A stretch of DNA of 64,000 nucleotides from a virus (IMGVR_UViG_3300021471_000001:609-64608), one strand, 5' to 3'; counted from the stretch's first letter, positions 13,931 to 52,230 are shown. The notes: generated by a model from the letters alone, not told the origin. Numbers and translations are program-made.

Positions 13931-14015
13931 TTTATAGCTCCTATACAATAAATCCAAAGATTTTTATTATTTTGGTGTTTTTATATCTTTTCAAAAGTCT
14001 TTTATAATTTTCCAC

Positions 14016-14205
14016 GAGAAACGCCAAAATACCCACAAATTGAAGACTTTTTCTTTTTTTGGTATAAAAGTTCAACAAAGATAATAAAACGTCCTTATTG
14101 TGAATATTTTCAATTTTCATATTTCTTTCTCTCTATCAATCCAAATATTCCCTCGAGAAACACGAAAAAAGCCACAATTTGAAGACTTTTTACAAAAATG
14201 GTATA
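14016..14205. repeat. Two copies of a dispersed ~51-bp element (GAGAAA-N12-CACAA-N22-GGTATA)
   Basis: Copies start at 14016 and 14155; a third with identical internal spacing starts at 37689. Confidence 0.6.
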
Positions 14206-29418: not shown

Positions 29419-30879
29419 TTAAAATACCTTTACATCTTGAAAACTTACTTTACCTTTACTTTGCATTGTAAAGCCACCGTGTAAGCTATCAGGACCGTCT
29501 AACTTACTATCAGGAAAATAGTCCAATTGTTCTATCAGCTTCTTATAAGCTTTAAACATATCCCTACGGAACTTTATACGACCATTAACTATGAATGGTT
29601 CTATCGTCTTTATCCTTGCTATCTTGTTTTCATAGTTCTTTATCTTTTTAATCGACATATAGAAACGGTTTTCTTCAAACTTTCTTTCTATCTCACTTAC
29701 AACGTATTTCTGAAACCCGTTTGACTCTATACCTAACTCGTGCCACTGCCACTCTATCCCCTTTGACACTACAAAGTCAGTTAACTTCTCTGGTCTAAGC
29801 TTTACCAGATTGCAGTCTAACACATAGAAAGTACCGTCGTCATCTTTGCCATACGTAATAAGACAAGAGTAATCACTATGTTTTTTCTCTTCTAGTGCTG
29901 GGTCTAAGTATGCCCATTTGTATAATCTATCTATATCTATAGCTTCCATGTCAAATAAATGAAACCTTTCGCTGTTGAAAACCCTTTCGTCCTCACTGTA
30001 TGGCTCATTCATCCACTCACATTGGAAACCACGAAGATTATCTTCACGTATTTTCTCTAACTCTTCAATGGTATAGCGTTCTTTCCACAGAGGAGTCCCA
30101 TCTTCCTTTATAGCTTTGTAAAAATGTATTCGATATAATGGGTTTTTCTTTCTACAAATGTTATGAAGCAAACTATCCCAGTGTAATATCGTACCTACAA
30201 GGATAATATTCGTATACTTTAAGTCCCCTAAAAACCTAATAGCACGATTGAACCAATTCATCTGTCTTTTTCTGTAAGCTTCACTTTCAACTTCTTCATC
30301 TTTTTCTAAGTCGTCAATCAGTATAAAATCAGGTCGCTTCTCTCTTTGCCTTATTCCACGCAGTGATTGACCAAACCCACGTGCTACAATCCTTACTCCA
30401 TTGCTAAGGATAATATCACTATCCGACCACTTTACAAGCCTATTGCCTTTATCCATTGCCGGCTTTAATCCGAAAACCTCTATCAGCTTATCGTTATATT
30501 CTATTTCTTCTACAATATTACGTAAGATTGATTGAGAGCTAGCACCACTAGACGATATTATCACTATGAACTTACGTTTCATATAACATGTGAGCCATAA
30601 AACCGCACCTAAAGATAATAAAACAGACTTACCATGATTTCTCGGAGCTATGAAAGTTTCTATTTCAGTTTTGACATTTAAGTTTTCGATAGTATGGATA
30701 ACGTCATCATGAAATGGACAAAAGCTATAGTTAAAGTAGGACGGCAAAAACTCCAACAAAAACCCCTTGAAGTTGTTCTCATACTTCTTTTTAATCTTTT
30801 CGTTTTTTTGCTGTACTAGTTTCCTATGCTTTTCGTACAACAAAAGTAGTTGTTGTTGTTTCAACCGCAGTAATGACAT
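29419..30879 (-). CDS. terL: Terminase large subunit
   Basis: Walker A APRNHGKS, LRG, Walker B ILIDDLE, VGT, nuclease YLDPA...SDYS, IESNGFQ, DGPDSL. Confidence 0.95.
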   Translation of the reverse strand: MSLLRLKQQQLLLLYEKHRKLVQQKNEKIKKKYENNFKGFLLEFLPSYFNYSFCPFHDDVIHTIENLNVKTEIETFIAPRNHGKSVLLSLGAVLWLTCYMKRKFIVIISSSGASSQSILRNIVEEIEYNDKLIEVFGLKPAMDKGNRLVKWSDSDIILSNGVRIVARGFGQSLRGIRQREKRPDFILIDDLEKDEEVESEAYRKRQMNWFNRAIRFLGDLKYTNIILVGTILHWDSLLHNICRKKNPLYRIHFYKAIKEDGTPLWKERYTIEELEKIREDNLRGFQCEWMNEPYSEDERVFNSERFHLFDMEAIDIDRLYKWAYLDPALEEKKHSDYSCLITYGKDDDGTFYVLDCNLVKLRPEKLTDFVVSKGIEWQWHELGIESNGFQKYVVSEIERKFEENRFYMSIKKIKNYENKIARIKTIEPFIVNGRIKFRRDMFKAYKKLIEQLDYFPDSKLDGPDSLHGGFTMQSKGKVSFQDVKVF

Positions 30880-35435: not shown

Positions 35436-35930
35436 CTAATTACTAAACTTATGTCCACATTTTGGACATATTATGGTGTTTTCTTTGCTATCAAATGCAA
35501 AATTGTCCTCTTTTGTATTTATTATTTCGTCTAATTCGTTGTCTGAAAAAGGTAACTCTTCACGTATATCAACTTCATATTCTTTCTCAAGTTCAACTAA
35601 CAAGTCCTTTAACACATCATTGTCAGCATAACCCTTTGTCTCATTAAGTCTTATGCTTAAGCGTTTTGCCTCTTTGTCACTTAGAGTCCCAAGATTGTTT
35701 ATACTTATTTCCTTCATACCAAGTTCTATACAAGCCTTCCATCTATGCTCTCCGTCTATTATCTCATAGAAACCGTCTTTCTCTCTTACAACTATTGGTA
35801 CAACAAATCCATCTTCACTTATGCTTTGTTTTTCCTTCTCAAACATAAAGCTATTTTGTATGTTATAATTCCAATCATTCGGCTTTACTTTATCAATGCT
35901 TATTTTCTGTTCATTAACCTTTATTTTCAT
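35436..35930 (-). CDS. ParB-like N-terminal domain protein with C-terminal Zn ribbon
   Basis: KPNDWNYN, GFVVPIVVR, EIIDGEHRWKA, CPKCG. Confidence 0.85.
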   Translation of the reverse strand: MKIKVNEQKISIDKVKPNDWNYNIQNSFMFEKEKQSISEDGFVVPIVVREKDGFYEIIDGEHRWKACIELGMKEISINNLGTLSDKEAKRLSIRLNETKGYADNDVLKDLLVELEKEYEVDIREELPFSDNELDEIINTKEDNFAFDSKENTIICPKCGHKFSN

Positions 35931-36268: not shown

Positions 36269-36303
36269 AAAAAAAAAGACTTCCTATGTACCTATAGAAA
36301 GCC
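36269..36303 (-). terminator. Rho-independent terminator
   Basis: Minus strand GGCTTTCTAT-aggtac-ATAGGAAGTC followed by T9; G-U pairs valid on the minus strand. Confidence 0.75.
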
Positions 36304-36439
36304 TTTCCGGGTTGCCTTATGGAAAAATCTGTTACTCCATACACTAAACTCAAGCTTAAACTTTGAAGATGGGCATTTAGGAGGATTTTCTGACCACTTA
36401 ACATTTAAAAACTCTTTGTCAAAAAGCTATTAAGAAATA

Positions 36440-36733
36440 GTCCCTTCTAAAACGAAGGATCAAATAGATAAAGAATAATAATAACTAAATGGGAAAAACT
36501 GCGTATAAGAGTACACAGTTTTCCCATAATATTCCCTATTCTTTTAAAAAAACGAAAATACTGCCCCTTTGTAGCGTCAAAGAGGCAAGGTAAAGTGTCA
36601 AAATATGTTAATAAATAATTATATACAATTCCGAAAAACAGCTTGCCCCTTTAATCTTTCCTAAAGAGGCAAGTAGACTGTTGAGAATATCCAAACATCA
36701 AGTAAACCCTTCTTTCGACATCAAGAAGGGCTT
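36440..36733 (-). ncRNA. Candidate structured non-coding RNA: five tandem hairpins
   Basis: Hairpins at 36440-36460, 36489-36527, 36561-36589, 36642-36673 and 36704-36733; two share TGCCTCTTT...AAAGGGGCA stems. Confidence 0.4.
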
Positions 36734-36795
36734 AAATATAAATAATTCTTCCAATACCTATACCTAAAACACTCAAAAACCCAAATGTTCCATTT

Positions 36796-37925: not shown

Positions 37926-38702
37926 TTATGACATAGTATTACATATACCTACACACTCAAACAATGGATACTCATCCTTATAGTAAAAGCCGCTCAACTC
38001 TCCTTTTTCAATCTTAATCCTAAAATCTTCTAAAGTTATATCTTTAAGAAAGTGTACATCCTTAGAAAACTTTTTCCTAAATCGCCTTTCTACTCTTTCT
38101 CTATCTGCATATACATCAGGTAGCTTATCATATAGTCTTTTCCATTGTCTTTTACCTTGCCTAACACAACCACCTGAACAATTGTTATGGCTAAATCCTA
38201 ACTTATATAATATTGGCTCTTCAATCCCAGAATGCTTTATAAAATCATCTATTTCCATAGAATTAATACCATGCTCTATAAGAGGGAATCTTATTCGACA
38301 CATTTTTTTCTTTTTAGCTGCTATTACTTGATATACAGATACAATTCTTTGTGCTCTATGCTCTTCATCTTTACTAATGCCAAAAATTATTGTATCACCA
38401 TTCTTATAAAACTTTTGAAGTCTTTCTGCTTTAAGTATACGAGAGCAAAATGGCATACGATCGCAAGCAAGAGCCTTTTGATCAAAAAAAAGCTGTTCAG
38501 GACTTCTTCCATCTGTATCCTTTGTTACTTCCTTTTTTAAAAACCTACTCAGATCATCTAAAAAACGGTATAGGTCTGGATGTTCCCACTTGGTGTCATT
38601 AAAATATAACACAATATCGTCCTTATCAAAGTTTCTCATTGCCCAATTAGCACACCATGCACTAGCTTTTCCACCACTTAAAGCTACTATAATTCTTCCC
38701 AT
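37926..38702 (-). CDS. PAPS reductase/PP-loop family protein (phage type)
   Basis: VALSGGKAS PP-loop, DTKWEHPDLYRFL, CSRILK, GFSHNNCSGGCV. Confidence 0.8.
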   Translation of the reverse strand: MGRIIVALSGGKASAWCANWAMRNFDKDDIVLYFNDTKWEHPDLYRFLDDLSRFLKKEVTKDTDGRSPEQLFFDQKALACDRMPFCSRILKAERLQKFYKNGDTIIFGISKDEEHRAQRIVSVYQVIAAKKKKMCRIRFPLIEHGINSMEIDDFIKHSGIEEPILYKLGFSHNNCSGGCVRQGKRQWKRLYDKLPDVYADRERVERRFRKKFSKDVHFLKDITLEDFRIKIEKGELSGFYYKDEYPLFECVGICNTMS

Positions 38703-39522: not shown

Positions 39523-39783
39523 TCAATTAAACATATCTAACTGCTTATTGTATTTAACATTACCATTTACAACTTCATACTTTTGAAAACAGAACAGGCA
39601 AATATATAAGTTATCTTTATTATCGAACTCGTACTTTTCCTGTCGTTCTTGTTTTCCACAATTTGGACACCTTATATTCGTTTCTTCAAAACAAGATGGA
39701 CAAAGATATGAATTAACCTTCTCACAAAAAATAAGCTTTTCAGATGGAATCTTCCTTTCACATTTTGGACACCTTATAATCAT
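39523..39783 (-). CDS. Double Zn-ribbon protein
   Basis: Multiple CxxC pairs. Confidence 0.6.
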   Translation of the reverse strand: MIIRCPKCERKIPSEKLIFCEKVNSYLCPSCFEETNIRCPNCGKQERQEKYEFDNKDNLYICLFCFQKYEVVNGNVKYNKQLDMFN

Positions 39784-40134
39784 TTATACCTCCTTTACAG
39801 TTATCATTAAATAGTTTTCCTTGTCTGGCAAACGCTTTACACTTATATAATCGACCTGACTATCGTCTACAAAGACAATTCCCTTCAAACCATCTATAGA
39901 AGCCTTTATAACATTATCTATATCTCTAAGCTTAACCATAAAAGACACTTCTATATTGATTCTTATGCGCTTACTTGACATCTTGGGTTTTTGTGAAAGG
40001 CATAAATATCCCAAAGCCCTCTTAAAATCCTTTACTGGACGCTTTAAATATATTCTACCATTTCTACTTATACCATAGGACTGATTTACAGACGGTATTA
40101 AACCTGTATACTCTATCTTACATATAGTTTTCAT
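39784..40134 (-). CDS. rusA: RusA-family Holliday junction resolvase
   Basis: PSVN, RDIDNVIKASIDGL, FVDDSQV catalytic aspartates. Confidence 0.88.
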   Translation of the reverse strand: MKTICKIEYTGLIPSVNQSYGISRNGRIYLKRPVKDFKRALGYLCLSQKPKMSSKRIRINIEVSFMVKLRDIDNVIKASIDGLKGIVFVDDSQVDYISVKRLPDKENYLMITVKEV

Positions 40135-41253: not shown

Positions 41254-41949
41254 TTAAAAATATCTAAGTTTCCAACTTAACACATTGTCTATTTCTGGAC
41301 AACCATAAGCTAAAAACTCTGGGTCAAAAAGCGTTGTGAAACGTACTTTATCCCATCCCACGACAGGTGAATACTTGTCGTAGTAACTAATATAAGGAAT
41401 GCCGTTTTCTACTATGTAGCCCCACACATCAAGCCACGTCAAATCTCGGATAGGAAAAACTTCTTTCATTTCCGTTAAAGAACGACCTGAAGTTATTCTC
41501 AACCGTCTTTTTATGCTTTCTTCTTTTCTCAAACCGACAAAACAACAATCATATCCTTCTTTTATCAATCTAGGAATTAATCCCTTGATTAAATCCATTC
41601 CTATCACGTTTGTAGCTTTTCGTTTTAATTTATCGTACAACTCGGAAGTCTCTACACGTAAGTTTTCTACGCCTATCTTTTTTGCATTTTCCATTATTTC
41701 ATTGAAATACACTCTCGGCATATAATACTTTCCGTAATCCCAATGTAAAACCATTATGTCTTTTTGCTGTTCTATAATCATGTGTAACATAACGGTTGAG
41801 TCCTTTCCTCCAGAGAAAGCGACGTAAGACTTGTTATATTTCTTTAAGCTCTTTTTCACAATATCTTTAGCATTATCTATTCTCTCTCTATACTCTTCTG
41901 TTGTACTATGTAAAGCAAAAGTTTCTCTTATTCTTTCTTCCATAACCAT
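41254..41949 (-). CDS. cysH: CysH-like PAPS reductase family protein associated with type IV-B
   Basis: YVAFSGGKDSTV, FVGLRKEESIKRR, PIRDLTWLDVWGYI; last gene of the csf operon. Confidence 0.85.
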   Translation of the reverse strand: MVMEERIRETFALHSTTEEYRERIDNAKDIVKKSLKKYNKSYVAFSGGKDSTVMLHMIIEQQKDIMVLHWDYGKYYMPRVYFNEIMENAKKIGVENLRVETSELYDKLKRKATNVIGMDLIKGLIPRLIKEGYDCCFVGLRKEESIKRRLRITSGRSLTEMKEVFPIRDLTWLDVWGYIVENGIPYISYYDKYSPVVGWDKVRFTTLFDPEFLAYGCPEIDNVLSWKLRYF

Positions 41950-42587
41950 TAACTCACTTTAAATTTTGCACCTTCCTTATTAAGCTTACTAATAGCATGT
42001 GCTAAGCTATTTTTATTTATATCTACACCATAAAAACACTTACATTGATTATAACAAGCTAAAGCAGTTAACCCTCTTCCCATACACATGTCTACTATAG
42101 GTGATAATATTTCATATCCTATAGCATGATACGGCGTCATACTGTCATCCAAACCACTAAAATCCTTTTTACAAAGGTCATAGGCACCTCTGAGCAGATA
42201 AGCTTTTCTTTCTTTATAGTAAGTAATTTCCCAAACATCTACTATTGGAAAAAGCTTCCCCATTTCAAATTCAAAGACATCTACATATTGTTTTCCTATT
42301 TCCAAATAACAAACTTGAGCATTCGTTTCATTAATTCTTTCAAACAAAGACATATAAAAATCTGCATAATCTTTTATCTTATTTTCTTTACATGCCTTAT
42401 TAATAAAATAGTTTGTCAAAGCTTTATTCCAGGGGGGATCACAATAAACCATCTCCGCTTTTTTACAGTAAGTCGGATAATCATGTCTTATATCACATAC
42501 ACTTATCATTGAATCTCCCTTTAAGTTGCTATCATAATAGTGCCATATCTCTCCCTCCTTGATTGGGAACTGATACCAAGCACTCAT
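41949..42587 (-). CDS. DNA methyltransferase-like protein (amino-MTase type)
   Basis: VYCDPPW (motif IV) precedes VDMCMGRGLT (motif I) and FYGVDIN; start at 42587 gives an ATGA overlap with the upstream gene. Confidence 0.7.
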   Translation of the reverse strand: MSAWYQFPIKEGEIWHYYDSNLKGDSMISVCDIRHDYPTYCKKAEMVYCDPPWNKALTNYFINKACKENKIKDYADFYMSLFERINETNAQVCYLEIGKQYVDVFEFEMGKLFPIVDVWEITYYKERKAYLLRGAYDLCKKDFSGLDDSMTPYHAIGYEILSPIVDMCMGRGLTALACYNQCKCFYGVDINKNSLAHAISKLNKEGAKFKVS

Positions 42588-43237
42588 CTTTTTCTTTTTT
42601 TTCTTATTCTTTTTCTCTTCCATATCTTTACACTCCTTTCTTTTAGAAAATCTCTCTTTAATTTTTCTAAGTCAGTAACGCCAAAAGTCCTTGACTGTCT
42701 TTTAGAAGAACGTCTAGGATTGATTGAAGACCTTCCTACCCTATGATCTACCAAATTAGGTACAACAATCCAATATCTCATTTTCTTCTTACGCAAAACC
42801 CAAGCAACAAATAAATCTGTCCCCGTCGGATTCTTACCACTATCATATACTTTCCAGCTTTCATAATATTCTAACAGTTCTTTTGACAATCCCATAGGCA
42901 AATAAAAACACACGCTACACATAAAAGAACCGCCTGAACAATATCTACTGCCTATCAATATATCATCTTTCCTTCTTGAAAAGAATTGTATAACTTCATT
43001 TGGTCTTTTATCTATTTCTACACTAACTTTATCCAAAAAATTATCACACAATATAACATCGTCTTCCAAATGCAAGCATGGATATGACTTTGCAAGCTTC
43101 AACGCTTCTAAAAACGTGTCCATAGCATTCTTTGTTTTATCATAACAGTATATTGTGTCTTCTGGTAAATGATTCCGCAAATATTCTATGTACGGTTCTC
43201 TTTTCTTAACACATTTAACAATTATTTTATAATTCAA
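42584..43237 (-). CDS. Glycosyltransferase-like protein (GT-A fold)
   Basis: CLHLEDDVILC acidic metal-binding motif and VPNLVDHR late His motif. Confidence 0.6.
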   Translation of the reverse strand: MNYKIIVKCVKKREPYIEYLRNHLPEDTIYCYDKTKNAMDTFLEALKLAKSYPCLHLEDDVILCDNFLDKVSVEIDKRPNEVIQFFSRRKDDILIGSRYCSGGSFMCSVCFYLPMGLSKELLEYYESWKVYDSGKNPTGTDLFVAWVLRKKKMRYWIVVPNLVDHRVGRSSINPRRSSKRQSRTFGVTDLEKLKRDFLKERSVKIWKRKRIRKKRKR

Positions 43238-43967
43238 TTTCTATCTCCTCTTTTGGAATGCAACAAATATCCACATTTTCAGGAGACCAGTACGGTGGCT
43301 TCCAAGCTACATTCACAACTCTTTTACATTTCTTTAAATATCGTCTCGGAATAGGTCTCATCGCCTTGCCATCTTTGATTAAACTATAATCTTTATCTGT
43401 ACTCTTAATCTCAAAACCACTTACAGCACCATAACCAACACGACAATTATCTCCCAAACCCACAATCAAAGAACACAAATACTCCATCGCCTTTCTATCC
43501 GCATTAACATAAAAGCTTACTGTCCTAGTCGGTATATATATATGTCTCATCATATAATCCCTAAAGTGACCACTACCTTTACTTATTTTTCTATGTCCTT
43601 TTATCCATCTATCCTCAAACTTCTTGTACAACACTTCCATTTTTAAGCTATCAGTATCGAAAAAAGAAATCGAACTATGGTATAAATCACCATGAGAAAG
43701 CTTTATTGGACTTTCTGGTAAATCATTTTTATTTATCACTCGAAATAAATTAAACTTACGTGGAAGCAAATAATAATCTTTCCCTAAATACTTCAATAGA
43801 AGCAAATGTCCAATTAGTCCATCGAAGTTTAACCAAGCATGATTCAATGCTATTGGTGAGGACATATAAAAAATTATCTCCATAGGAGTATATTTCATAG
43901 GTTTTGCATTCCGATTAATCGCTTCTACATACTTTTTTGCAAAATATTTTATTTCATCAATTATCAT
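43227..43967 (-). CDS. csf3: Type IV CRISPR Cas5-like subunit Csf3
   Basis: MSSPIAL...LNFDGLI, GSGHFRDY, G-rich loop LGDNCRVGYGAV, MRPIP, WKPPYW. Confidence 0.85.
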   Translation of the reverse strand: MIIDEIKYFAKKYVEAINRNAKPMKYTPMEIIFYMSSPIALNHAWLNFDGLIGHLLLLKYLGKDYYLLPRKFNLFRVINKNDLPESPIKLSHGDLYHSSISFFDTDSLKMEVLYKKFEDRWIKGHRKISKGSGHFRDYMMRHIYIPTRTVSFYVNADRKAMEYLCSLIVGLGDNCRVGYGAVSGFEIKSTDKDYSLIKDGKAMRPIPRRYLKKCKRVVNVAWKPPYWSPENVDICCIPKEEIEIEL

Positions 43968-44806
43968 TTTCCCTTTCCTAACTTTGCAATTAATTCAATT
44001 AATAAATCTTTGTTACTTTCTACAAAGCTAATATACGCCTTACTATCGCTAATCTGTGGTCTATAGTCAAAAGACACTTCGCCATCACCTGTTGAACTTT
44101 TTCCACCAACAAATGGTGACTTTCTGAATAGCTCAATCACTCTTCCAAAACACGACTTTTCTAATTCCGTTGCCCACTCGAGTGAGAACCAGTGATAAAA
44201 CTTTGTTCCTATACCAAAGCACTCATAGTCAACTTTCATCTGTTGAGCCTGCTCATCCTTCTCTCTATCGGCTTTTAAGTCGTCCTTACGTGTATGAAAG
44301 CTTTCGTCAGTAAATTCTTTCACGTTTTTATTTACTCTTTCGTCTTGTTTATATTGTTCAGGTAGGTATATATAATATTCTTTGCAGATTGGAAAAGCAT
44401 GTCCGACTTTCAAAATTCCTGGTATCATTTGATTTCCTATTGCACAGCCAAAAACGGCAAGTGGTATAATCAAATCTCTTATTTCAGTACGCATTTTCAG
44501 GTCTATGGTTGCGTAATTATCCTCTGTACTCTCTAATACACCACCTGTGAAGAATGTATGATATAGCTTTACTGGAAGTTTATCAACCTCAAATCCAAGC
44601 AGTTCTAGAAAGTCTTTCATAATAAGACGTCTTAGCTTCCCCCTTATAGCATTGCCATGCAAGTATGGAAATGGTATTTCACCCATTCCATCAACGTAAA
44701 GGTAGATTGTCCTTAACACTGGTGTTGAACCAGTCTTTTCATTACCACCGTGATGTATTGGAGACTTCGCTAGAAGCCATCCTTCGTACTTTTGAATTAT
44801 TTTCAT
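43964..44806 (-). CDS. csf2: Type IV CRISPR Cas7-like backbone Csf2
   Basis: AKSPIHHG, PYLHGNAIRGKLRR, FTGGVL, LAVFGCAIGNQMIPGILKVG, VGGKSSTGDGEV. Confidence 0.92.
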   Translation of the reverse strand: MKIIQKYEGWLLAKSPIHHGGNEKTGSTPVLRTIYLYVDGMGEIPFPYLHGNAIRGKLRRLIMKDFLELLGFEVDKLPVKLYHTFFTGGVLESTEDNYATIDLKMRTEIRDLIIPLAVFGCAIGNQMIPGILKVGHAFPICKEYYIYLPEQYKQDERVNKNVKEFTDESFHTRKDDLKADREKDEQAQQMKVDYECFGIGTKFYHWFSLEWATELEKSCFGRVIELFRKSPFVGGKSSTGDGEVSFDYRPQISDSKAYISFVESNKDLLIELIAKLGKGK

Positions 44807-45213
44807 TCTTTTACCTCCTCTGTCTTTTTTTGTTCATACATATCTTGTATGTCTATATCAAATGTAGGTTTACTTTTCCTACTACTTTTAATCTCTTTTC
44901 CCTTTATGATAGCTCTTACACAAAAGGGAATGTGTTCAGAATAAAGCCTAGTAAGTACATAGACCTCATCCTTTCTTAAATCTTCGACTAATCCTATACT
45001 TTCACCTGGTAGGGTCTGCAAACCAAAGTAATTACATAACTTACTTGCAAAAGCATAGATAGTCCCTCGTCTAGAAGCCGATCTAACACGGTGATTAAAT
45101 ATATCGTGCGGATTCTTAGACGTTTTCATACTATGCCAATTTATCTTACTGTATACCACAGCGAGTAAATCGACAAGCGTATCTTCTAAAACCTTTTTCC
45201 TATTTGGAGACAT
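44803..45213 (-). CDS. cas11: Type IV-B small subunit (Cas11/Csf4-like)
   Basis: 136-aa helical protein between csf1 and csf2, the canonical IV-B position. Confidence 0.7.
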   Translation of the reverse strand: MSPNRKKVLEDTLVDLLAVVYSKINWHSMKTSKNPHDIFNHRVRSASRRGTIYAFASKLCNYFGLQTLPGESIGLVEDLRKDEVYVLTRLYSEHIPFCVRAIIKGKEIKSSRKSKPTFDIDIQDMYEQKKTEEVKE

Positions 45214-45808
45214 AAGCTAACAACTCCCATAATGGATTTCTAATAAATGGTTTGGCACTTTCTATTAAGAAATACCAACCCTTTTCCATAGCTAGCCTTG
45301 AGTTTTTCATTGTTAATTCACCTCTAATTATTTCTGACTTTGAGACTTTATTCTCACGAAGCCTACATATTAGGTTGTGATAAGTCTTCACGTCACTTTG
45401 ATTAACTAAAAAACTCCCGAGCCAGTCTGTGGAAACATAAAAATGAACGTTATCAAAGTTAATTCTTTGTAAGGAATCGAGCCACCCTTGTTTTTGGTAG
45501 CTCTTTGTAACATATAAAAAGAATGGAACAGGTTTTTCTCTCAATAAGGTCTCCAAAACCTCTTCTCTCTTTAAAAATACAACACTTTCCTCAGTAGCAA
45601 ACCACGATTTCTTACGATAGTTCTGATTCCTAAAGAAATGATAACAATATTCACAAGTTACACCGCCATTTTTCAAGTATGAGTATCCTGTAAAACTGTT
45701 TGAGAATGGCAAATCAAAACCATTATTCGTCTCTTTACCACATACACAACAATAGCCAGATTTATCTCCTATTTCTGGACTTCTAATAACCAATTCTGTA
45801 ACTATCAT
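45200..45808 (-). CDS. csf1: Type IV large subunit Csf1 (Cas8-like)
   Basis: CCVCG...FSNSFTGYSYL...VTCEYC Zn finger; PFFLYVTKSYQKQGW. Confidence 0.8.
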   Translation of the reverse strand: MIVTELVIRSPEIGDKSGYCCVCGKETNNGFDLPFSNSFTGYSYLKNGGVTCEYCYHFFRNQNYRKKSWFATEESVVFLKREEVLETLLREKPVPFFLYVTKSYQKQGWLDSLQRINFDNVHFYVSTDWLGSFLVNQSDVKTYHNLICRLRENKVSKSEIIRGELTMKNSRLAMEKGWYFLIESAKPFIRNPLWELLAYVSK

Positions 45809-46473
45809 CTTGACAACCTCTTTCTATACTGATAAAACAACTTTTCGATATTTAAGTACCTAGTTCTAACTACTTCACCTTTATAGCTTCTACTAAGCAT
45901 AATCAACTTCTTAGCAAAGTCAAGAGTCAGCTCATACTCTATCCTACGTGGAAAACCACGCCGATCATACTCGATAACATAGCGTTTATAATCCCTTCCT
46001 TCCTTTGCATACAAATTTTGTTCTATGTTTTTTCGCTTCCATTTAGCATAATTACCAACGTCAAGTCCCAAAAACCTGTATAGCTCTGAGCTCATGATGG
46101 TTTTCTTTAACTCAATTTTTTCTGTAAATCTAGGTAAGCTCGTTTTCATAAAGCTTTTTCCCTTTTCTGCGTCTTTATACTCTTTTCTAGATTCTTCTCT
46201 ATCCTTTATATATCCCACTACAATTTCGTATCCTCTTTTGGTAAATACTCTTAGACGATTGACTTGTTCTACGTTATTATATAGGTCTTTGATTTGAGAC
46301 CTGAATACTTTTACATTATCGCCTGAAAGCAAATATGTATCTTTGTTTTCCTTCAAGTTTCGTTTCAAGAGCTTATTTGCAACTTGTTGAATTCTCTTTT
46401 CTGTTACACCAAGCTCTTTTGCCATGTCTAAAACAGTAAATACTTGTTTACCATTAAAATATCTTTTTGTCAT
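45805..46473 (-). CDS. ORF6N + AntA-domain antirepressor-like protein
   Basis: N-terminal VFTVLDMAKELG...TYLLSG...VFTKRG; C-terminal SSELYRFLG...YELTLDFAKKLIM; start 46473 has a GGAGG RBS. Confidence 0.75.
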   Translation of the reverse strand: MTKRYFNGKQVFTVLDMAKELGVTEKRIQQVANKLLKRNLKENKDTYLLSGDNVKVFRSQIKDLYNNVEQVNRLRVFTKRGYEIVVGYIKDREESRKEYKDAEKGKSFMKTSLPRFTEKIELKKTIMSSELYRFLGLDVGNYAKWKRKNIEQNLYAKEGRDYKRYVIEYDRRGFPRRIEYELTLDFAKKLIMLSRSYKGEVVRTRYLNIEKLFYQYRKRLSR

Positions 46474-46489
46474 AGCTTTAAACCTCCAT

Positions 46490-47461
46490 TTATTTAAGTT
46501 CAATAAAGTTTTTACTATCATTACACTTCTCACTTATCCTTCTAAACATTGAAGTAAGAACATCACTCCATGAATTGTTTATGTCATAAATCATTTTCTG
46601 TAAATCATAGATTGATTTGTTCGATGTAATAATGAACTGAAACCGCTCTCCACGTTTATAAATCGCATCAAACACAGCCAACATCTCTTTTAAGTTAAAC
46701 TCTGTGAACTTCACTTTATCAAAGTCATCTATAAGAATATAGTAATATGATTCTGTCGGTGGAACAGTAATTTCCCATATTTTCAAATGTGTAAATGCTT
46801 TATAATCCCTTTCTAATCCATATTTTACAAACTCTTTTATCAGTTTATTACATGTGAAATTGTTAAAAGAGAATATTAAGTCTTGGTCTATGTAGTAGGA
46901 AAGTATCGCATACATGGAGTATGTTTTGCCAACGGCAGGTCTGCCATATAGATAAAAGGATTGTGGCTTTTCATAATTTTTAACCATATTAAAAAGCCTT
47001 TTCTGACAGCCATTCTTATGACTTTCAAAATTAGCATCTTTATAAATGCCAAACTTGTACTTCATCTTAGCTAACATATTTTTCCTGTAATCTTTGCTTT
47101 TCTCTTTGTATCGTCTATCTATCTCACACTGTCTGCAATAATCCCAAATCAGAACGTCGTTATCGAATTCTCTCGGCTTTCCGATTGTATCTTTTAAAGC
47201 ATCTGCACTTATTTTAAAGAATGACGAAATCCACTCAATCTTACTAGCAAAGATTTTTGAACCGCAGACCTGACATAATTTAACGCTATCTCTAAGATTA
47301 CCTTCAGTTACATATTTATTTATCGCTTCCATACGTTCTTTAACACTACTTGGAATTATATCTTTCTTTTCATTAGCTTTAATTTGTTCTAATGGTATCT
47401 CAAACTTTGTTTTGACAGCCTTTTTTATTGGTTTGTCAAATGGATTTTCTTTGCTATTCAT
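46490..47461 (-). CDS. DnaC/IstB-like ATPase (helicase loader)
   Basis: Walker A LYGRPAVGKT, Walker B LIDDF, IITSN, N-terminal CxxC pairs. Confidence 0.8.
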   Translation of the reverse strand: MNSKENPFDKPIKKAVKTKFEIPLEQIKANEKKDIIPSSVKERMEAINKYVTEGNLRDSVKLCQVCGSKIFASKIEWISSFFKISADALKDTIGKPREFDNDVLIWDYCRQCEIDRRYKEKSKDYRKNMLAKMKYKFGIYKDANFESHKNGCQKRLFNMVKNYEKPQSFYLYGRPAVGKTYSMYAILSYYIDQDLIFSFNNFTCNKLIKEFVKYGLERDYKAFTHLKIWEITVPPTESYYYILIDDFDKVKFTEFNLKEMLAVFDAIYKRGERFQFIITSNKSIYDLQKMIYDINNSWSDVLTSMFRRISEKCNDSKNFIELK

Positions 47462-48614: not shown

Positions 48615-49307
48615 TTAATAATTCATCCTCATTTTCAAAACAAAGCTTGATACAATGTTAAAAATACTTGTAATAAATAAAATTAAACTTTCTAAAACTT
48701 CTTCTTTCTTCTCGTAGGCAAAATTAAAACGATTATAAGCATCAAGCACAGCCGTCAAGGACGAAACAAAGCCATCATAAAAGTTTTCACCCTTATCAAA
48801 ATTAAAAAATTTTGCTAAATCTTTTTCATACATAGAAATATTTATATTAAAATGCTTAACACTTTTTCTAAAGCTTGGTATAATTTCTGATACAGTTATC
48901 AATTCACCATTACTAATAACCTTATCTATGTAATGTTCAGAATCATCTTTATTACAACCACTTTTATCATTTCTTGTTTTTAAAACATGCTTTAATACTG
49001 CATTATATAAACCAGACATAACCTCAAAAACCTGTGCAACAACAGTTTTATAGTCTTCAAATTTATTTAAAGCATTTGTCAAACATAAAAATACATGATG
49101 AACTGATGAAATAAAACCTTCATAGAAAATATCGTCCTTTTCGAAAAGCATAAATTCCCTAGAAATATGGTCTCTATTTACACTTATATCTGGAACGTAT
49201 GGGACCTTCTCTTTTGCAAGCTTTAATTCACTATTCAGAAGCTTAAAATCAAGTTCGGATAGCATTCTATCACTATTAAAAGCTTTAATCTCTCTTCTAT
49301 TACTCAT
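48615..49307 (-). CDS. Paralogous family member with two tandem domains
   Basis: FEKDDIFYEGF...HVLKTR and FDKGENFYDGF...FVLKMR. Confidence 0.65.
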   Translation of the reverse strand: MSNRREIKAFNSDRMLSELDFKLLNSELKLAKEKVPYVPDISVNRDHISREFMLFEKDDIFYEGFISSVHHVFLCLTNALNKFEDYKTVVAQVFEVMSGLYNAVLKHVLKTRNDKSGCNKDDSEHYIDKVISNGELITVSEIIPSFRKSVKHFNINISMYEKDLAKFFNFDKGENFYDGFVSSLTAVLDAYNRFNFAYEKKEEVLESLILFITSIFNIVSSFVLKMRMNY

Positions 49308-50703
49308 TTTCTTTTACTCCTTCATCATTATACTTATGTGGATAGTAATCTCTAAGACATTTCTCTTCCCATTCTTCATCTGTCATCAGACTAGGATCGG
49401 TCTTTCTCTTTTCTATATACTCTGCCTTTAAGTTAGAATATTTCCTTAGTAGTATAGAAGGAATTAATTCGTATTTATACCAATCTTTCTTCAGTGCAAA
49501 ATTGACAATCCTACGAAACAAATCTCTATCTTTTTCTATTCTAGCAATATAACGGAATTGTCCTATTTCAGATATTGTAAGAGAGCAATAGAAACCGTGC
49601 ACTTCTTTCCACTCTTCAAAATATATTTTCCTTAAGTCTTCTGAAAGCTTTTTTTCTAAACTTTTCTTACCTTTTCCATTTCTAGAAGGTTTAAGTACTT
49701 TACTTGCTTCTTCAAAAAGATATTCTGTACTAGTATTAACATTATCTTTACTTTGACTTACTTTTTCTATACTACTAGTACTAGAATCTATGTTATGGGA
49801 ACTAGTACCTAGAGTAGAGTCTATGTTAGAAGTACAAGTTGTACTAGATTCCTTAGTACTAGAGTCTTTGCTAGAAGAACTAGATTCTTTAGGTCTAGTT
49901 GTACTAGATTCTCTAGTAGATCTAGATCTACTAGAAGTACTAGAAGATTCATCAACTTTTTCTTTAGAAAAAGTTGATGGTTTTTCTTTATTTTTTTTTC
50001 TAGATCTTTCTTTATATTCTTTATTTCTAGTTTCTTTAGGATTCTCGAAATGCTTTTCAGAAAAGCTTTTTTGCGGTGTAACTTGTGTATTTTTTACACA
50101 AGTTATTAATCCTTTGTCAATCCCGTTTTCGAAGACATCGAGTTTGTTATCACTGTCTGGTTGCTGATTCCCAACTTGTGTATTTTTTACACAAGTTTTG
50201 TGTAAACTTTCCCCAAGTTGGCTTTTATCTTTGACACTGTCTTTAGAGTAATCTTGTTCCATTTTGTTGTTCTCTGATAAAGATTTTTCAGGTTGTGTAT
50301 TTTTTACACAAGTTGTTTCCTTGCTTTCAATTTCTTTTTTCGGAGTTGCAACGTCTATTTTGTTGTTGGAGACTTTATCTTCAACTTGTGTAATATTTAC
50401 ACAAGTTTGATTTCCTCTTTTCTCACTTGTGTAATATTTACACAAGTTTATTATACGCCCCTGTCCCTGTCTTGTTTTCACTTCTATTATACCTTTTCTT
50501 TTTAATTCAGAAAGACATTTTGTAATCGTCTTATTATTCAATCCAGTTTCAGAAATGAGTTTACAATTTGTTAATTTTGTTCCTCTTCTTTGAAAGCCAT
50601 TCGTATATCGAAATATTATGAAAAGTAGTTTCGTAGCATTTCCTGAAAGGTGAATTAAATCTTTTTTATCGATCAAATCATTATCAAACATAGTAAAGCC
50701 CAT
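49300..50703 (-). CDS. Phage replication initiator (lambda O-like organisation)
   Basis: N-terminal wHTH (LSGNATKLLFIIFRYTNGF...TGLNNKTITKCLSELKRKGII), iteron-encoded linker, upstream of a DnaC-like gene. Confidence 0.8.
   Translation of the reverse strand: MGFTMFDNDLIDKKDLIHLSGNATKLLFIIFRYTNGFQRRGTKLTNCKLISETGLNNKTITKCLSELKRKGIIEVKTRQGQGRIINLCKYYTSEKRGNQTCVNITQVEDKVSNNKIDVATPKKEIESKETTCVKNTQPEKSLSENNKMEQDYSKDSVKDKSQLGESLHKTCVKNTQVGNQQPDSDNKLDVFENGIDKGLITCVKNTQVTPQKSFSEKHFENPKETRNKEYKERSRKKNKEKPSTFSKEKVDESSSTSSRSRSTRESSTTRPKESSSSSKDSSTKESSTTCTSNIDSTLGTSSHNIDSSTSSIEKVSQSKDNVNTSTEYLFEEASKVLKPSRNGKGKKSLEKKLSEDLRKIYFEEWKEVHGFYCSLTISEIGQFRYIARIEKDRDLFRRIVNFALKKDWYKYELIPSILLRKYSNLKAEYIEKRKTDPSLMTDEEWEEKCLRDYYPHKYNDEGVKENE
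50080..50448. repeat. Five 25-bp palindromic iterons; putative replication origin
   Basis: AACTTGTGTA-N5-TACACAAGTT-type copies at 50080, 50173, 50290, 50383 and 50424. Confidence 0.85.
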
Positions 50704-51417: not shown

Positions 51418-52230
51418 CTATTTAAAAAGTTTATTTTGATTAAAATGAAACTTGAAAAAGTCTGGAAACTCTTGATAGACTTTACCATCAATCAGATTAC
51501 CACCCTTGAAACTTCCATCACTGCATTCTCCTTTTCTACCCCACTGTTTGAAGAAAAATGGTATCTTTAAGCTTTCACAATAGTTTTTTATATTAATAAC
51601 CCAATCTTTTTTCATGGGGCGTGCACATTTGCCACCAGTTTCTCCCCCAACTATCACCCAACTGACGTATTGCAATTTACTGTATAAAGATGCATTCATT
51701 TTTTCTAGCAGAGGTTCAAAAGAAACAAAAATGTTGAATTTAAAAATATTGTAAACTGTGTATACTAAAGCTTTCAGACGATGTAACGCTCGATTATTTT
51801 CTACAGTCACGCCTATCATAACGTTTCTAGGTAAACCTTCAAAATTGATACCATGACTACGATAGAAGTCCATCTCGATAAAATGCGTGATTAATTTATC
51901 TATACGCTTTGTCAGTATCAAAAAAATATGTTGTTTAGATTTTTCGATAGTAGAAAAGACTTGTGCAATAAAATTATGACTAACTTCTTCATGAAACAAG
52001 TCTGACATTGAATTTACAAATATTAATTTAGGTTTTTTCCATTTTAACGGCGTATTTAATTCATTTTCATGACAAACAACTTTATTAAAACCATATTTAT
52101 ATTTTTTTAATCCCATAGCTTGTAGTCTTTTTGTCATTCTTTCTGCATAGCAATATCTACAACCGTCACTTACTTTAGTACACCCTGTCACAATATTCCA
52201 AGTTTCCTCTGCCCATTCAATTTTTGTCAT
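51418..52230 (-). CDS. Phage Gp37/Gp68 (DUF5131) family protein
   Basis: TKIEW..TWNIVTGCTKVSDGCRYCYA, IFVNSMSDLFH, LTKR, SFEPLL, WVIVGGETG, FFFKQWG. Confidence 0.9.
   Translation of the reverse strand: MTKIEWAEETWNIVTGCTKVSDGCRYCYAERMTKRLQAMGLKKYKYGFNKVVCHENELNTPLKWKKPKLIFVNSMSDLFHEEVSHNFIAQVFSTIEKSKQHIFLILTKRIDKLITHFIEMDFYRSHGINFEGLPRNVMIGVTVENNRALHRLKALVYTVYNIFKFNIFVSFEPLLEKMNASLYSKLQYVSWVIVGGETGGKCARPMKKDWVINIKNYCESLKIPFFFKQWGRKGECSDGSFKGGNLIDGKVYQEFPDFFKFHFNQNKLFK

Follow-up and report, generated by a model that had tools for sequence, protein, structure and literature searches.

A subtype IV-B CRISPR-Cas cassette and its CysH-like partner among the replication genes of a tailed phage from a hydrothermal-vent sample

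Subtype IV-B CRISPR-Cas systems are described in the literature as csf1, cas11, csf2 and csf3 accompanied by a nearly invariant cysH-like neighbour (Pinilla-Redondo 2020 and PMC7937560, among others). Such loci have been reported from plasmids as well as from predicted prophages (Shmakov 2018 preprint; Pinilla-Redondo 2020), a 2024 review places type IV systems in "some phages and prophages", and the paper describing an archaeal virus family with IV-B and a CysH-like gene also cites type IV in "several lytic phages" (PMC10848311). No experimental function for IV-B was found in this literature, and the 2025 classification treats the subtype as uncharacterised. Here we analyse a candidate IV-B locus in a stretch of viral DNA from a hydrothermal-vent sample (hereafter the window: 64,000 nt, bases 609-64608 of the 64,608-bp IMG/VR record IMGVR_UViG_3300021471_000001). 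An earlier note, made from the sequence alone, had proposed that this stretch encodes an array-less type IV-B effector. The background given there, namely that IV-B systems are borne by mobile elements, mostly lack arrays, have no established function and have been proposed to sequester CRISPR RNA (crRNA), agrees with the accounts in Pinilla-Redondo 2020, PMC7937560, the 2024 review and PMC13676074.

We are close to certain that the module is a genuine and intact subtype IV-B csf1-cas11-csf2-csf3 set with a Cas-linked cysH gene (CasCysH). Its carrier is a complete tailed phage of 64.6 kb, in which it is packed together with replication genes in one same-strand run. Each IV-B-defining feature that could be tested here was found, that is, csf1, cas11, csf2, csf3, a cysH-like gene and a mobile carrier, together with the lack of a helicase, Cas6, adaptation genes and an array. 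The assignment to IV-B therefore stands, and it draws also on the cysH-like gene, which the earlier note did not list. Published work has already described IV-B on plasmids, in prophages, in some phages and in an archaeal virus; the phage locus adds one more example, and an IV-B module in a phage is not a new kind of system. What the locus offers is a compact, complete and intact IV-B system in a fully assembled genome and in a clear setting, after a helicase loader and among replication genes.

All four cas genes were recognised by the type IV profiles of PADLOC, which are derived from CRISPRCasTyper, the kind of hidden Markov model check that the earlier note had suggested (Csf1_0_IV, 3.1e-34; Cas11_0_IV, 4e-34; Csf2_0_IV, 2e-70; Csf3_0_IV, 1.7e-52). 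The Cas11_0_IV match spans profile positions 1-113 of 114, and a Cas11 homolog occupies the same position in 44 of the 48 related loci over which all such counts in this work were taken. NCBIfam matches lay below the curated cut-offs (cas8u_csf1, 3.3e-5; cas7_csf2, 3.9e-12; cas5_csf3, 6.3e-13), with no NCBIfam match for Cas11, and in Pfam Csf2 alone was matched, weakly, by RAMPs (0.02), Csf1, Cas11 and Csf3 having no match. Across 14 sequences, the Csf1 cysteines C20, C23, C52 and C55 are invariant or nearly so. These matches, the cysteine pattern and the short gene overlaps bear out the overlapping csf1-cas11-csf2-csf3 genes with a Csf1 zinc finger and Cas7 and Cas5 subunits that had been proposed.

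Comparison with solved structures led to the same families. The AlphaFold model of Csf1 (predicted local distance difference test, pLDDT, 93.1) was used for a Foldseek search, which returned 7xg1_A (2.3e-6; template-modelling score, TM, 0.65), 8rc3_G (1.8e-5) and 8rc2_G (8.4e-4). All three matches at E<=0.001 are type IV-A Csf1/large-subunit chains, the next match standing at E 0.26, and a profile of Csf1 relatives compared with the PDB also reached 8rc3_G (0.0036). A Csf2 profile built from six viral sequences matched the IV-C Cas7c chain 11fs_C (3.9e-17) and the IV-B Csf2 chain 7jhy_e (8e-15), and a 14-sequence Csf3 profile matched the solved IV-A Csf3 chains 7xfz_B (1.5e-7) and 8rc3_F (2.9e-7). 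Profiles, solved chains and the Csf1 model all support type IV folds. Asp42, which is catalytic in Mycobacterium Csf2, falls on an insert column of the Csf2 profile.

Adaptation genes, crRNA-processing genes and an array were searched for across the whole 64,608-bp record. Tandem Repeats Finder, a general repeat search and two k-mer scans found no CRISPR array in it, and no Rfam family reached its gathering score there. PADLOC and Pfam scans covered 78 other open reading frames (ORFs; E<=1e-5), six further ORFs including one of 2,686 aa, and the nine of the module and its neighbours; no Cas1, Cas2, Cas3, Cas4, Cas6, Cas10 or DinG was found among them, and hence no adaptation module (cas1, cas2, cas4). 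The same scans gave no RecD and no Cas10-like HD large subunit, no search having been aimed at RecD by name. Six-frame searches for Cas6 (PF01881, PF10040), Cas1 (PF01867) and the DinG-type helicase C-terminal domain (PF13307) were likewise empty, and control genomes matched. The claim that cas1, cas2, cas6, dinG and an adjacent array are missing is thus upheld, and no canonical array with cas6 lies elsewhere in the record.

The cysH-like gene is the fifth member of the set. It lies beyond two inserted genes that follow csf3, a glycosyltransferase-like gene and a methyltransferase gene. The four csf/cas genes named in the earlier note are right, and the system reaches ~2 kb further than was stated there. 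In an alignment of 15 CasCysH sequences the SGGKDS PP-loop is invariant, as is the R141/E144/R148 block, and there is no conserved C-terminal cysteine, a cysteine occurring in that region in 3 of the 15. According to Taylor et al. 2021 (PMC8175902), a PP-motif SGGxDS/T and the lack of a catalytic cysteine separate CasCysH from CysH and DndC. Because it lacks a conserved C-terminal catalytic cysteine, the product is predicted to have a CysH-like fold without being a sulfonucleotide reductase. The closest solved chain to the CasCysH profile is CysD, a sulfate adenylyltransferase (6.2e-13). The AlphaFold model (pLDDT 79) gave as its top folds the phosphoadenosine phosphosulfate (PAPS) domain of FAD synthase, CysD and PAPS/adenosine phosphosulfate reductases, with PP-loop enzymes of tRNA modification ranking next. 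Conservation extends to the final 42 residues (R203, F208, G216 and others), which might be a lid or docking segment, a reading that goes no further than inference. Complex prediction of Csf3, Csf1 and CasCysH (a 14-row alignment each) gave run scores of 0.53, 0.00 and 0.00 in runs made without controls, and it counts neither for nor against an assembly of the three.

Several comparisons tie this gene to the cassette. CasCysH is 39% identical (6e-47) to the cysH product of the IV-B locus on a Thermococcus nautili plasmid and 25% identical (9e-9) to that of a Rhodococcus locus, values that parallel the Csf2 identities of 43% and 30% to the same two loci. The best match among 50,697 GenBank phage records was 25% identical at E 2e-4, and CasCysH is far closer to IV-B-linked cysH than to any cysH-like gene of those phages. 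A cysH gene follows csf3 in 39 of the 48 related loci, directly or with an overlap in most of them. Seven of the nine loci without it end before, or within ~650 nt past, csf3, which gives 39 of the 41 loci with enough sequence; the true exceptions are the most distant relative (L054, 27%) and a rearranged locus (L021). Pairwise identities of CysH and Csf2 are correlated (Spearman 0.75 over 39 loci, from 741 non-independent pairs), compared with 0.67-0.88 for the core subunits against Csf2. To judge by these sequence comparisons, the gene is the Cas-linked form of cysH and not an ordinary phage PAPS reductase. The phage also carries a second, different PAPS-reductase-like gene at 37926-38702 (PADLOC SspD, 3.7e-24), in which the cysteine motifs are kept and which forms an internal contrast to CasCysH; a ParB_N gene lies at 35436-35930.

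Relatives of the cassette were collected with the Csf2 profile. In IMG/VR it matched 33 viral contigs, of which L054 is 27% identical and the other 32 are 40-63% identical. It also matched 15 contigs in GTDB species genomes, mostly short contigs of metagenome-assembled genomes (MAGs) with mixed taxonomic labels, the others including a 124-kb Caldicoprobacter algeriensis contig and a Candidatus Kapaibacterium MAG chromosome. The clade is thus frequent in uncultivated viruses. Matches in PLSDB comprised 74 plasmids, of which that of T. nautili was the best (43% Csf2 identity), with haloarchaeal plasmids at 30-34% and Rhodococcus and Mycobacterium plasmids, which make up 51 of the 74 records, at ~26-31%. 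A quick Csf2 tree, drawn without the duplicates L001, L028, L038 and L039 and without loci lacking a match of at least 200 residues, placed the window in a nine-member group (SH-like approximate likelihood ratio test support 91) with viral and MAG contigs. The five-gene set csf1-cas11-csf2-csf3-cysH is intact in nearly every relative of sufficient length. Outside the cassette, the contigs have almost nothing in common with this phage, and the cassette therefore moves between unrelated elements. The size of this virus-borne clade and the PAPS-reductase/ParB neighbours described below are modest additions to what is known, and the supplementary tables of published surveys may already list them.

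Among the 54 stored loci and records scanned, one has an array: L017, a MAG contig whose Csf2 is 47% identical, with four 36-nt repeats at a 72-nt period ~0.8 kb after cysH (L017:4044-4306). In the T. nautili plasmid record the gene after csf2 is labelled 'CRISPR-associated endoribonuclease Cas6' (L022:6845-7588, NZ_OX281346.1); its product is 41% identical to Csf3 of the window (1.4e-58), and the label looks wrong.

Among the closest described systems is the IV-B locus of this T. nautili plasmid, a 103-kb element and the best PLSDB match, which shares the order csf1-cas11-csf2-csf3-cysH, there with cysH directly after csf3 (Csf2 43%, Csf1 36%, Csf3 41% and CysH 39% identical). It differs from the phage in having an archaeal plasmid as carrier and no inserted methyltransferase or glycosyltransferase-like gene. 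The actinobacterial plasmid systems (Mycobacterium sp. JS623, PDB 7JHY; Rhodococcus) have the same gene set, are also borne on mobile elements, lack an array, Cas6, a helicase and adaptation genes, and supply the chain 7jhy_e matched by the Csf2 profile. Unlike them, the phage module has a tailed-phage carrier and two extra inserted genes, at ~26-31% identity in Csf2 and 25% in cysH, and its cysH lies downstream of csf3 on the same strand, whereas that in the Rhodococcus record is divergent and upstream. The 'Fuxiviridae', Bathyarchaeia viruses with an atypical IV-B system and here compared by their published description (Duan et al. 2024, PMC10848311), are likewise virus-borne, with a CysH-like gene beside csf3 and no adaptation module. 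They are, however, described as archaeal viruses with a two-repeat mini-array and Cas4, in contrast to the bacterial-phage features of this genome (M23 peptidase, O-like initiator, DnaC-like loader, RusA, LexA DNA-binding domain) and its lack of an array.

Type IV-C of Pyrococcus and Thermococcus (PDB 11fs, 'Cas7c') provides the best solved match to the Csf2 profile and shares the Cas7 and Cas11 backbone. It is reported to be chromosomal and to use crRNA against double-stranded DNA, with Csf1 replaced by a Cas10-like large subunit that has an HD nuclease (PMC13676074), whereas the phage module has a Csf1 large subunit and cysH. Type IV-A resembles it in the folds and sequences of Csf1 and Csf3, and differs in that the phage has no DinG, Cas6 or array, and has a Cas11, which is reported absent from IV-A (PMC7937560).

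The phage locus leaves the question of IV-B function unanswered. The recurring neighbours and the invariant PP-loop nevertheless yield concrete hypotheses for CasCysH biochemistry, and the short proteins, for which the vent source hints at thermostability, would suit structural work. From homology to 7JHY we infer that the Csf proteins assemble into a Cas7/Cas11 ribonucleoprotein (RNP) on RNA. Following the solved Mycobacterium IV-B complex, which assembles on heterogeneous RNA of ~55-60 nt (PMC7937560), Csf2 and Cas11 would form a double filament on RNA of ~55-60 nt with Csf3 and Csf1 capping its ends. Because the phage has neither an array nor Cas6, the bound RNA would not be a phage-made crRNA; it could be non-specific, host-derived or an unrecognised phage transcript. 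Since the SGGKDS PP-loop is intact and the reductase cysteine is lacking, CasCysH would cleave ATP between its alpha and beta phosphates and move adenosine monophosphate (AMP) onto a substrate presented by the RNP. We regard this as the most economical and most likely reading of the protein; it is the proposal already published by Taylor et al. 2021, AMPylation (PMC8175902). True adenylyltransferases are among the solved proteins nearest to CasCysH, CysD in the profile comparison and the PAPS domain of FAD synthase in the fold comparison. The complex would act during phage replication, where it would mark or alter nucleic acid when the phage contends with rival elements or the defences of its host, and the methyltransferase, the glycosyltransferase-like gene and the PAPS-reductase/ParB pair of relatives would place the cassette in a nucleic-acid-modification neighbourhood.

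This mechanism of an RNA filament coupled to adenylyl transfer is put forward tentatively, with the odds against it; identity and mechanism taken together have, in our view, about an even chance of being the best explanation of the locus as a whole. A bolder version is rather doubtful: that the filament and CasCysH form a guide-independent, RNA-scaffolded adenylyl-transfer machine for phage replication and no immune effector, functionally grouped with the N6-adenine methyltransferase, the glycosyltransferase-like gene and the IbrA-like PAPS-reductase/ParB pairs, protecting or marking phage nucleic acid against host defences, with the CasCysH C-terminal tail as its docking or lid element. Several points weigh against the proposed mechanism. 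The C-terminal 42 residues of CasCysH are modelled at pLDDT <50, so that active-site closure is not represented, and in the 2024 review CasCysH is described as an 'inactivated derivative' of the reductase. The Mycobacterium complex was obtained by heterologous expression, and the heterogeneous RNA in it is perhaps not native (PMC7937560). The modification-gene neighbourhood is a minority trait: of the 48 related loci, 5 have a methyltransferase homolog and 10 the PAPS-reductase/ParB pair, while none has the glycosyltransferase-like gene. Such neighbours may point to a region in which phage genomes gather accessory genes and not to a shared function. Finally, a September 2026 paper still describes IV-B function as unclear (PMC13676074).

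Other explanations were weighed against these. The csf genes could be one unit and the cysH-like, methyltransferase and glycosyltransferase-like genes an ordinary phage DNA-modification or anti-restriction island that happens to abut it. Two genes do separate cysH from csf3 in this phage, which also has the second PAPS-reductase-like gene, the ParB_N gene and further methyltransferases; phage ParB-fold proteins are reported to be often fused to DNA methyltransferases (PMC12704722), and among the relatives the methyltransferase is rare and the glycosyltransferase-like gene has no counterpart. This separation is quite possible for the methyltransferase and the glycosyltransferase-like gene, but it fails for cysH, which adjoins or overlaps csf3 in most relatives, is kept in 39 of the 41 loci, co-diversifies with Csf2 and has no close kin in GenBank phages. 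As an account of all three genes we consider it possible, though it falls clearly short of probable. That the module is a decaying, non-functional passenger is very improbable. The want of a nuclease, of an array and of any demonstrated function for the subtype (PMC13676074; 2024 review) would fit a remnant, yet every ORF is intact, short overlaps link them, 100 Csf2 columns are invariant among six viral sequences at 54-64% identity, dozens of viral contigs that are otherwise unrelated retain the same five genes, and the GC content of the module (0.347) is close to that of the phage (0.337).

Two further possibilities keep the RNP and give it a different task. The Csf proteins might protect the phage as an RNA sponge or anti-CRISPR, by coating crRNAs of the host, or small guide RNAs of another kind, and so depriving its effectors of them; CasCysH would then be dispensable or regulatory. 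This idea was proposed by Pinilla-Redondo 2020 and Zhou 2021 (PMC7937560), and it suits a phage without guides of its own, the reported binding of RNA without sequence preference by the solved IV-B RNP (PMC7937560) and the negative co-occurrence of IV-B with other CRISPR systems described by Pinilla-Redondo 2020, which fits antagonism. We think it unlikely: it gives no reason for the retention beside csf3 of an enzyme whose PP-loop is invariant and which diversifies with Csf2, and the proposers themselves called so complex an anti-CRISPR unlikely (Pinilla-Redondo 2020). Alternatively, the complex might load crRNAs from the array and Cas6 of the host or of a co-resident element, and bind, silence or mark rival mobile elements much as IV-A represses transcription. 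Csf3 (Cas5) and Csf1 are kept and conserved, which would suit recognition of a crRNA handle and of a target; arrays do occur in some relatives (the four repeats of L017, and the mini-array described for the archaeal Fuxivirus IV-B in PMC10848311), and type IV-A is described as using spacers acquired in trans. Yet no array, solitary repeat or Cas6 was found in the phage, an array occurs in just 1 of the 54 loci and records scanned, and the negative association with other CRISPR systems (Pinilla-Redondo 2020) counts against this reading too; such hijacking seems to us improbable.

The genes run end to end on the minus strand from 47461 down to 41254 (Table 1).

Table 1. Genes of the IV-B module and its immediate neighbours, listed along the minus strand (positions in the window)
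Feature	Position	Strand	Evidence or remark
DnaC/IstB-like AAA+ helicase loader	46490-47461	-	phrog_50 DnaC-like helicase loader 1e-11; NCBIfam IS21_help_AAA 5.9e-6, below cut-off; context gene directly upstream
AntA/ORF6N gene	45805-46533	-	Pfam AntA 3.2e-12, ORF6N 7.9e-7
csf1, type IV large subunit (Cas8-like), CxxC...CxxC zinc finger	45200-45808	-	PADLOC; AlphaFold and Foldseek
cas11, type IV small subunit	44803-45213	-	PADLOC
csf2, Cas7 backbone subunit	43964-44806	-	PADLOC; PDB profile matches
csf3, Cas5 subunit	43227-43967	-	PADLOC; PDB profile matches
Glycosyltransferase-like gene, inserted between csf3 and cysH	42584-43237	-	phrog_854
Small beta-class amino-methyltransferase, inserted before cysH	41949-42623	-	motifs DPPW ... 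DxCxGxGL; profile match 5hek_A
cysH-like gene (CasCysH)	41254-41949	-	Pfam PAPS_reduct 6.9e-18

Overlaps of 4 nt (ATGA) join AntA to csf1, cas11 to csf2 and csf2 to csf3, csf1 and cas11 overlap by 14 nt, and the start codons of the module are preceded by purine-rich Shine-Dalgarno-like runs. The module had been placed at 43227-46473, directly after a DnaC-like gene and led by the AntA/ORF6N gene through an ATGA overlap. The order and the overlap are as claimed, and the genes do lie in that span, except that 46473 is an internal ATG of the AntA ORF, which starts at 46533. A role for AntA as a conserved leader gene was rejected on finding homologs in 0 of the 48 related loci; the gene is context rather than a conserved part. 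No minus-strand terminator is predicted from ~51.1 kb to ~36.7 kb, a 14-kb same-strand run that includes the module and the replication genes. This placement suggests co-expression with the replication genes, and a role of the module during infection, as the earlier note had supposed, is a reasonable, if hypothetical, reading of it.

For the inserted glycosyltransferase-like gene, the phrog_854 'glucosyltransferase' match is full length (3.3e-8), and no Pfam family matched at E<=0.1. Its nearest ESM Atlas clusters are virus-only and unnamed, and the nearest named ones, Glyco_transf_25 (12% of members) or Glycos_transf_2 (44%), serve as leads only. This phage alone carries the gene among the loci examined. 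The inserted methyltransferase is probably an N6-adenine DNA methyltransferase: its profile matched the DpnA-type adenine DNA methyltransferase 5hek_A (2.2e-5), followed by 8urk, MboIIA and CcrM, and the DPPW and C-terminal GxG motifs are invariant in five homologs, Pfam matches being weak (Methyltransf_25, 0.0019; N6_N4_Mtase, 0.019). An N6-adenine methylase is named among the neighbour genes in the IV-B figure legend of the Shmakov 2018 preprint.

Homologs of the methyltransferase lie in or near the cassette in five of the related loci, in three positions, and this low count led us to reject it as an obligatory part. It stands between csf3 and cysH in L002 and in the window, between csf1 and cas11 in L020, and at the end of a string of cysH, an unknown gene, a PAPS_reduct+DUF3440 gene and a ParB_N gene in L010, L038 and L039. 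By Pfam, an IbrA-like PAPS_reduct+DUF3440 gene and a ParB_N gene abut the cassette in 10 of the 48. In the Candidatus Kapaibacterium MAG chromosome (L020:8295-14764), a gene for a primase-polymerase/D5_N helicase follows cysH, which suggests that this cassette lies in an integrated element.

The carrier is a tailed phage (Caudoviricetes): a single contig, bounded by terminal repeats, encodes TerL, portal and an HK97-type major head protein. CheckV estimated completeness at 100%, the 64,608-bp record ends in exact 127-bp direct terminal repeats, and almost all long ORFs lie on the minus strand. PHROG matches included TerL (5.8e-88), portal (2e-24), major head protein (1.4e-26) and an O-like replication initiator, and Pfam matches included RusA, M23 peptidase, LexA DNA-binding domain, ParB_N, ribonucleotide reductase barrel and DUF5131. 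The peptidoglycan peptidase, O-like initiator and DnaC-like loader of the phage suggest that its host is a bacterium and not an archaeon. No GenBank phage matched Csf2 at 1e-5. TerL (29419-30879) is at most 31% identical to that of any GenBank isolate phage, the matches having mixed hosts (Leptospira, Helicobacter, Campylobacter, Faecalibacterium), and among 5.8 billion proteins it has one relative at 50% and all others at <=32%, none usefully named; by these comparisons the lineage appears to be poorly sampled. The stretch is present in two DNA runs labelled hydrothermal vent metagenome, one of which may be its source, and no RNA run was listed for it.

Several repeats and hairpins elsewhere in the phage were inspected. 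Five copies of a 25-nt palindrome, AACTTGTGTATTTTTTACACAAGTT, occur at 50080-50448, inside the O-like replication-initiator ORF (49300-50703), at irregular spacings of 93, 117, 93 and 41 nt. Their irregular spacing and their position inside the initiator ORF led us to reject an array; the copies are probably iterons of an origin located within the initiator gene. The early gene run ends in an ORF-free stretch of ~490 nt (36273-36734, minus strand) with six terminator-like hairpins, which folds far better than shuffled sequences (z -5.7) and matched no Rfam family. Two of the hairpins (36562-36673) have identical stem arms 84 nt apart, differing loops and a U-rich run after each; a mini-array was rejected here in view of the differing loops, the U-rich runs and the four other terminator-like hairpins. 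The stretch is probably a terminator cluster or the leader of late genes, a structured RNA being a less probable reading. Two-copy direct repeats at 39654-39785 (30 nt, 87% identity, 102-nt spacing, overlapping a small zinc-ribbon-like ORF at 39523-39783) and at 14009-14191 (44 nt, 84% identity, 139-nt spacing) were also considered, and neither has the look of a CRISPR array.

PADLOC also reported matches of the phage to the candidate-defence families PDC-M41B and PDC-M30B at ~5e-84, these families being listed without ORF names. The phage encodes a DUF5131 protein at 51418-52230 (Pfam, 6e-78), which most likely accounts for both matches, and DUF5131 homologs also lie near the IV-B cassette in two of the related loci (L010 and L047).

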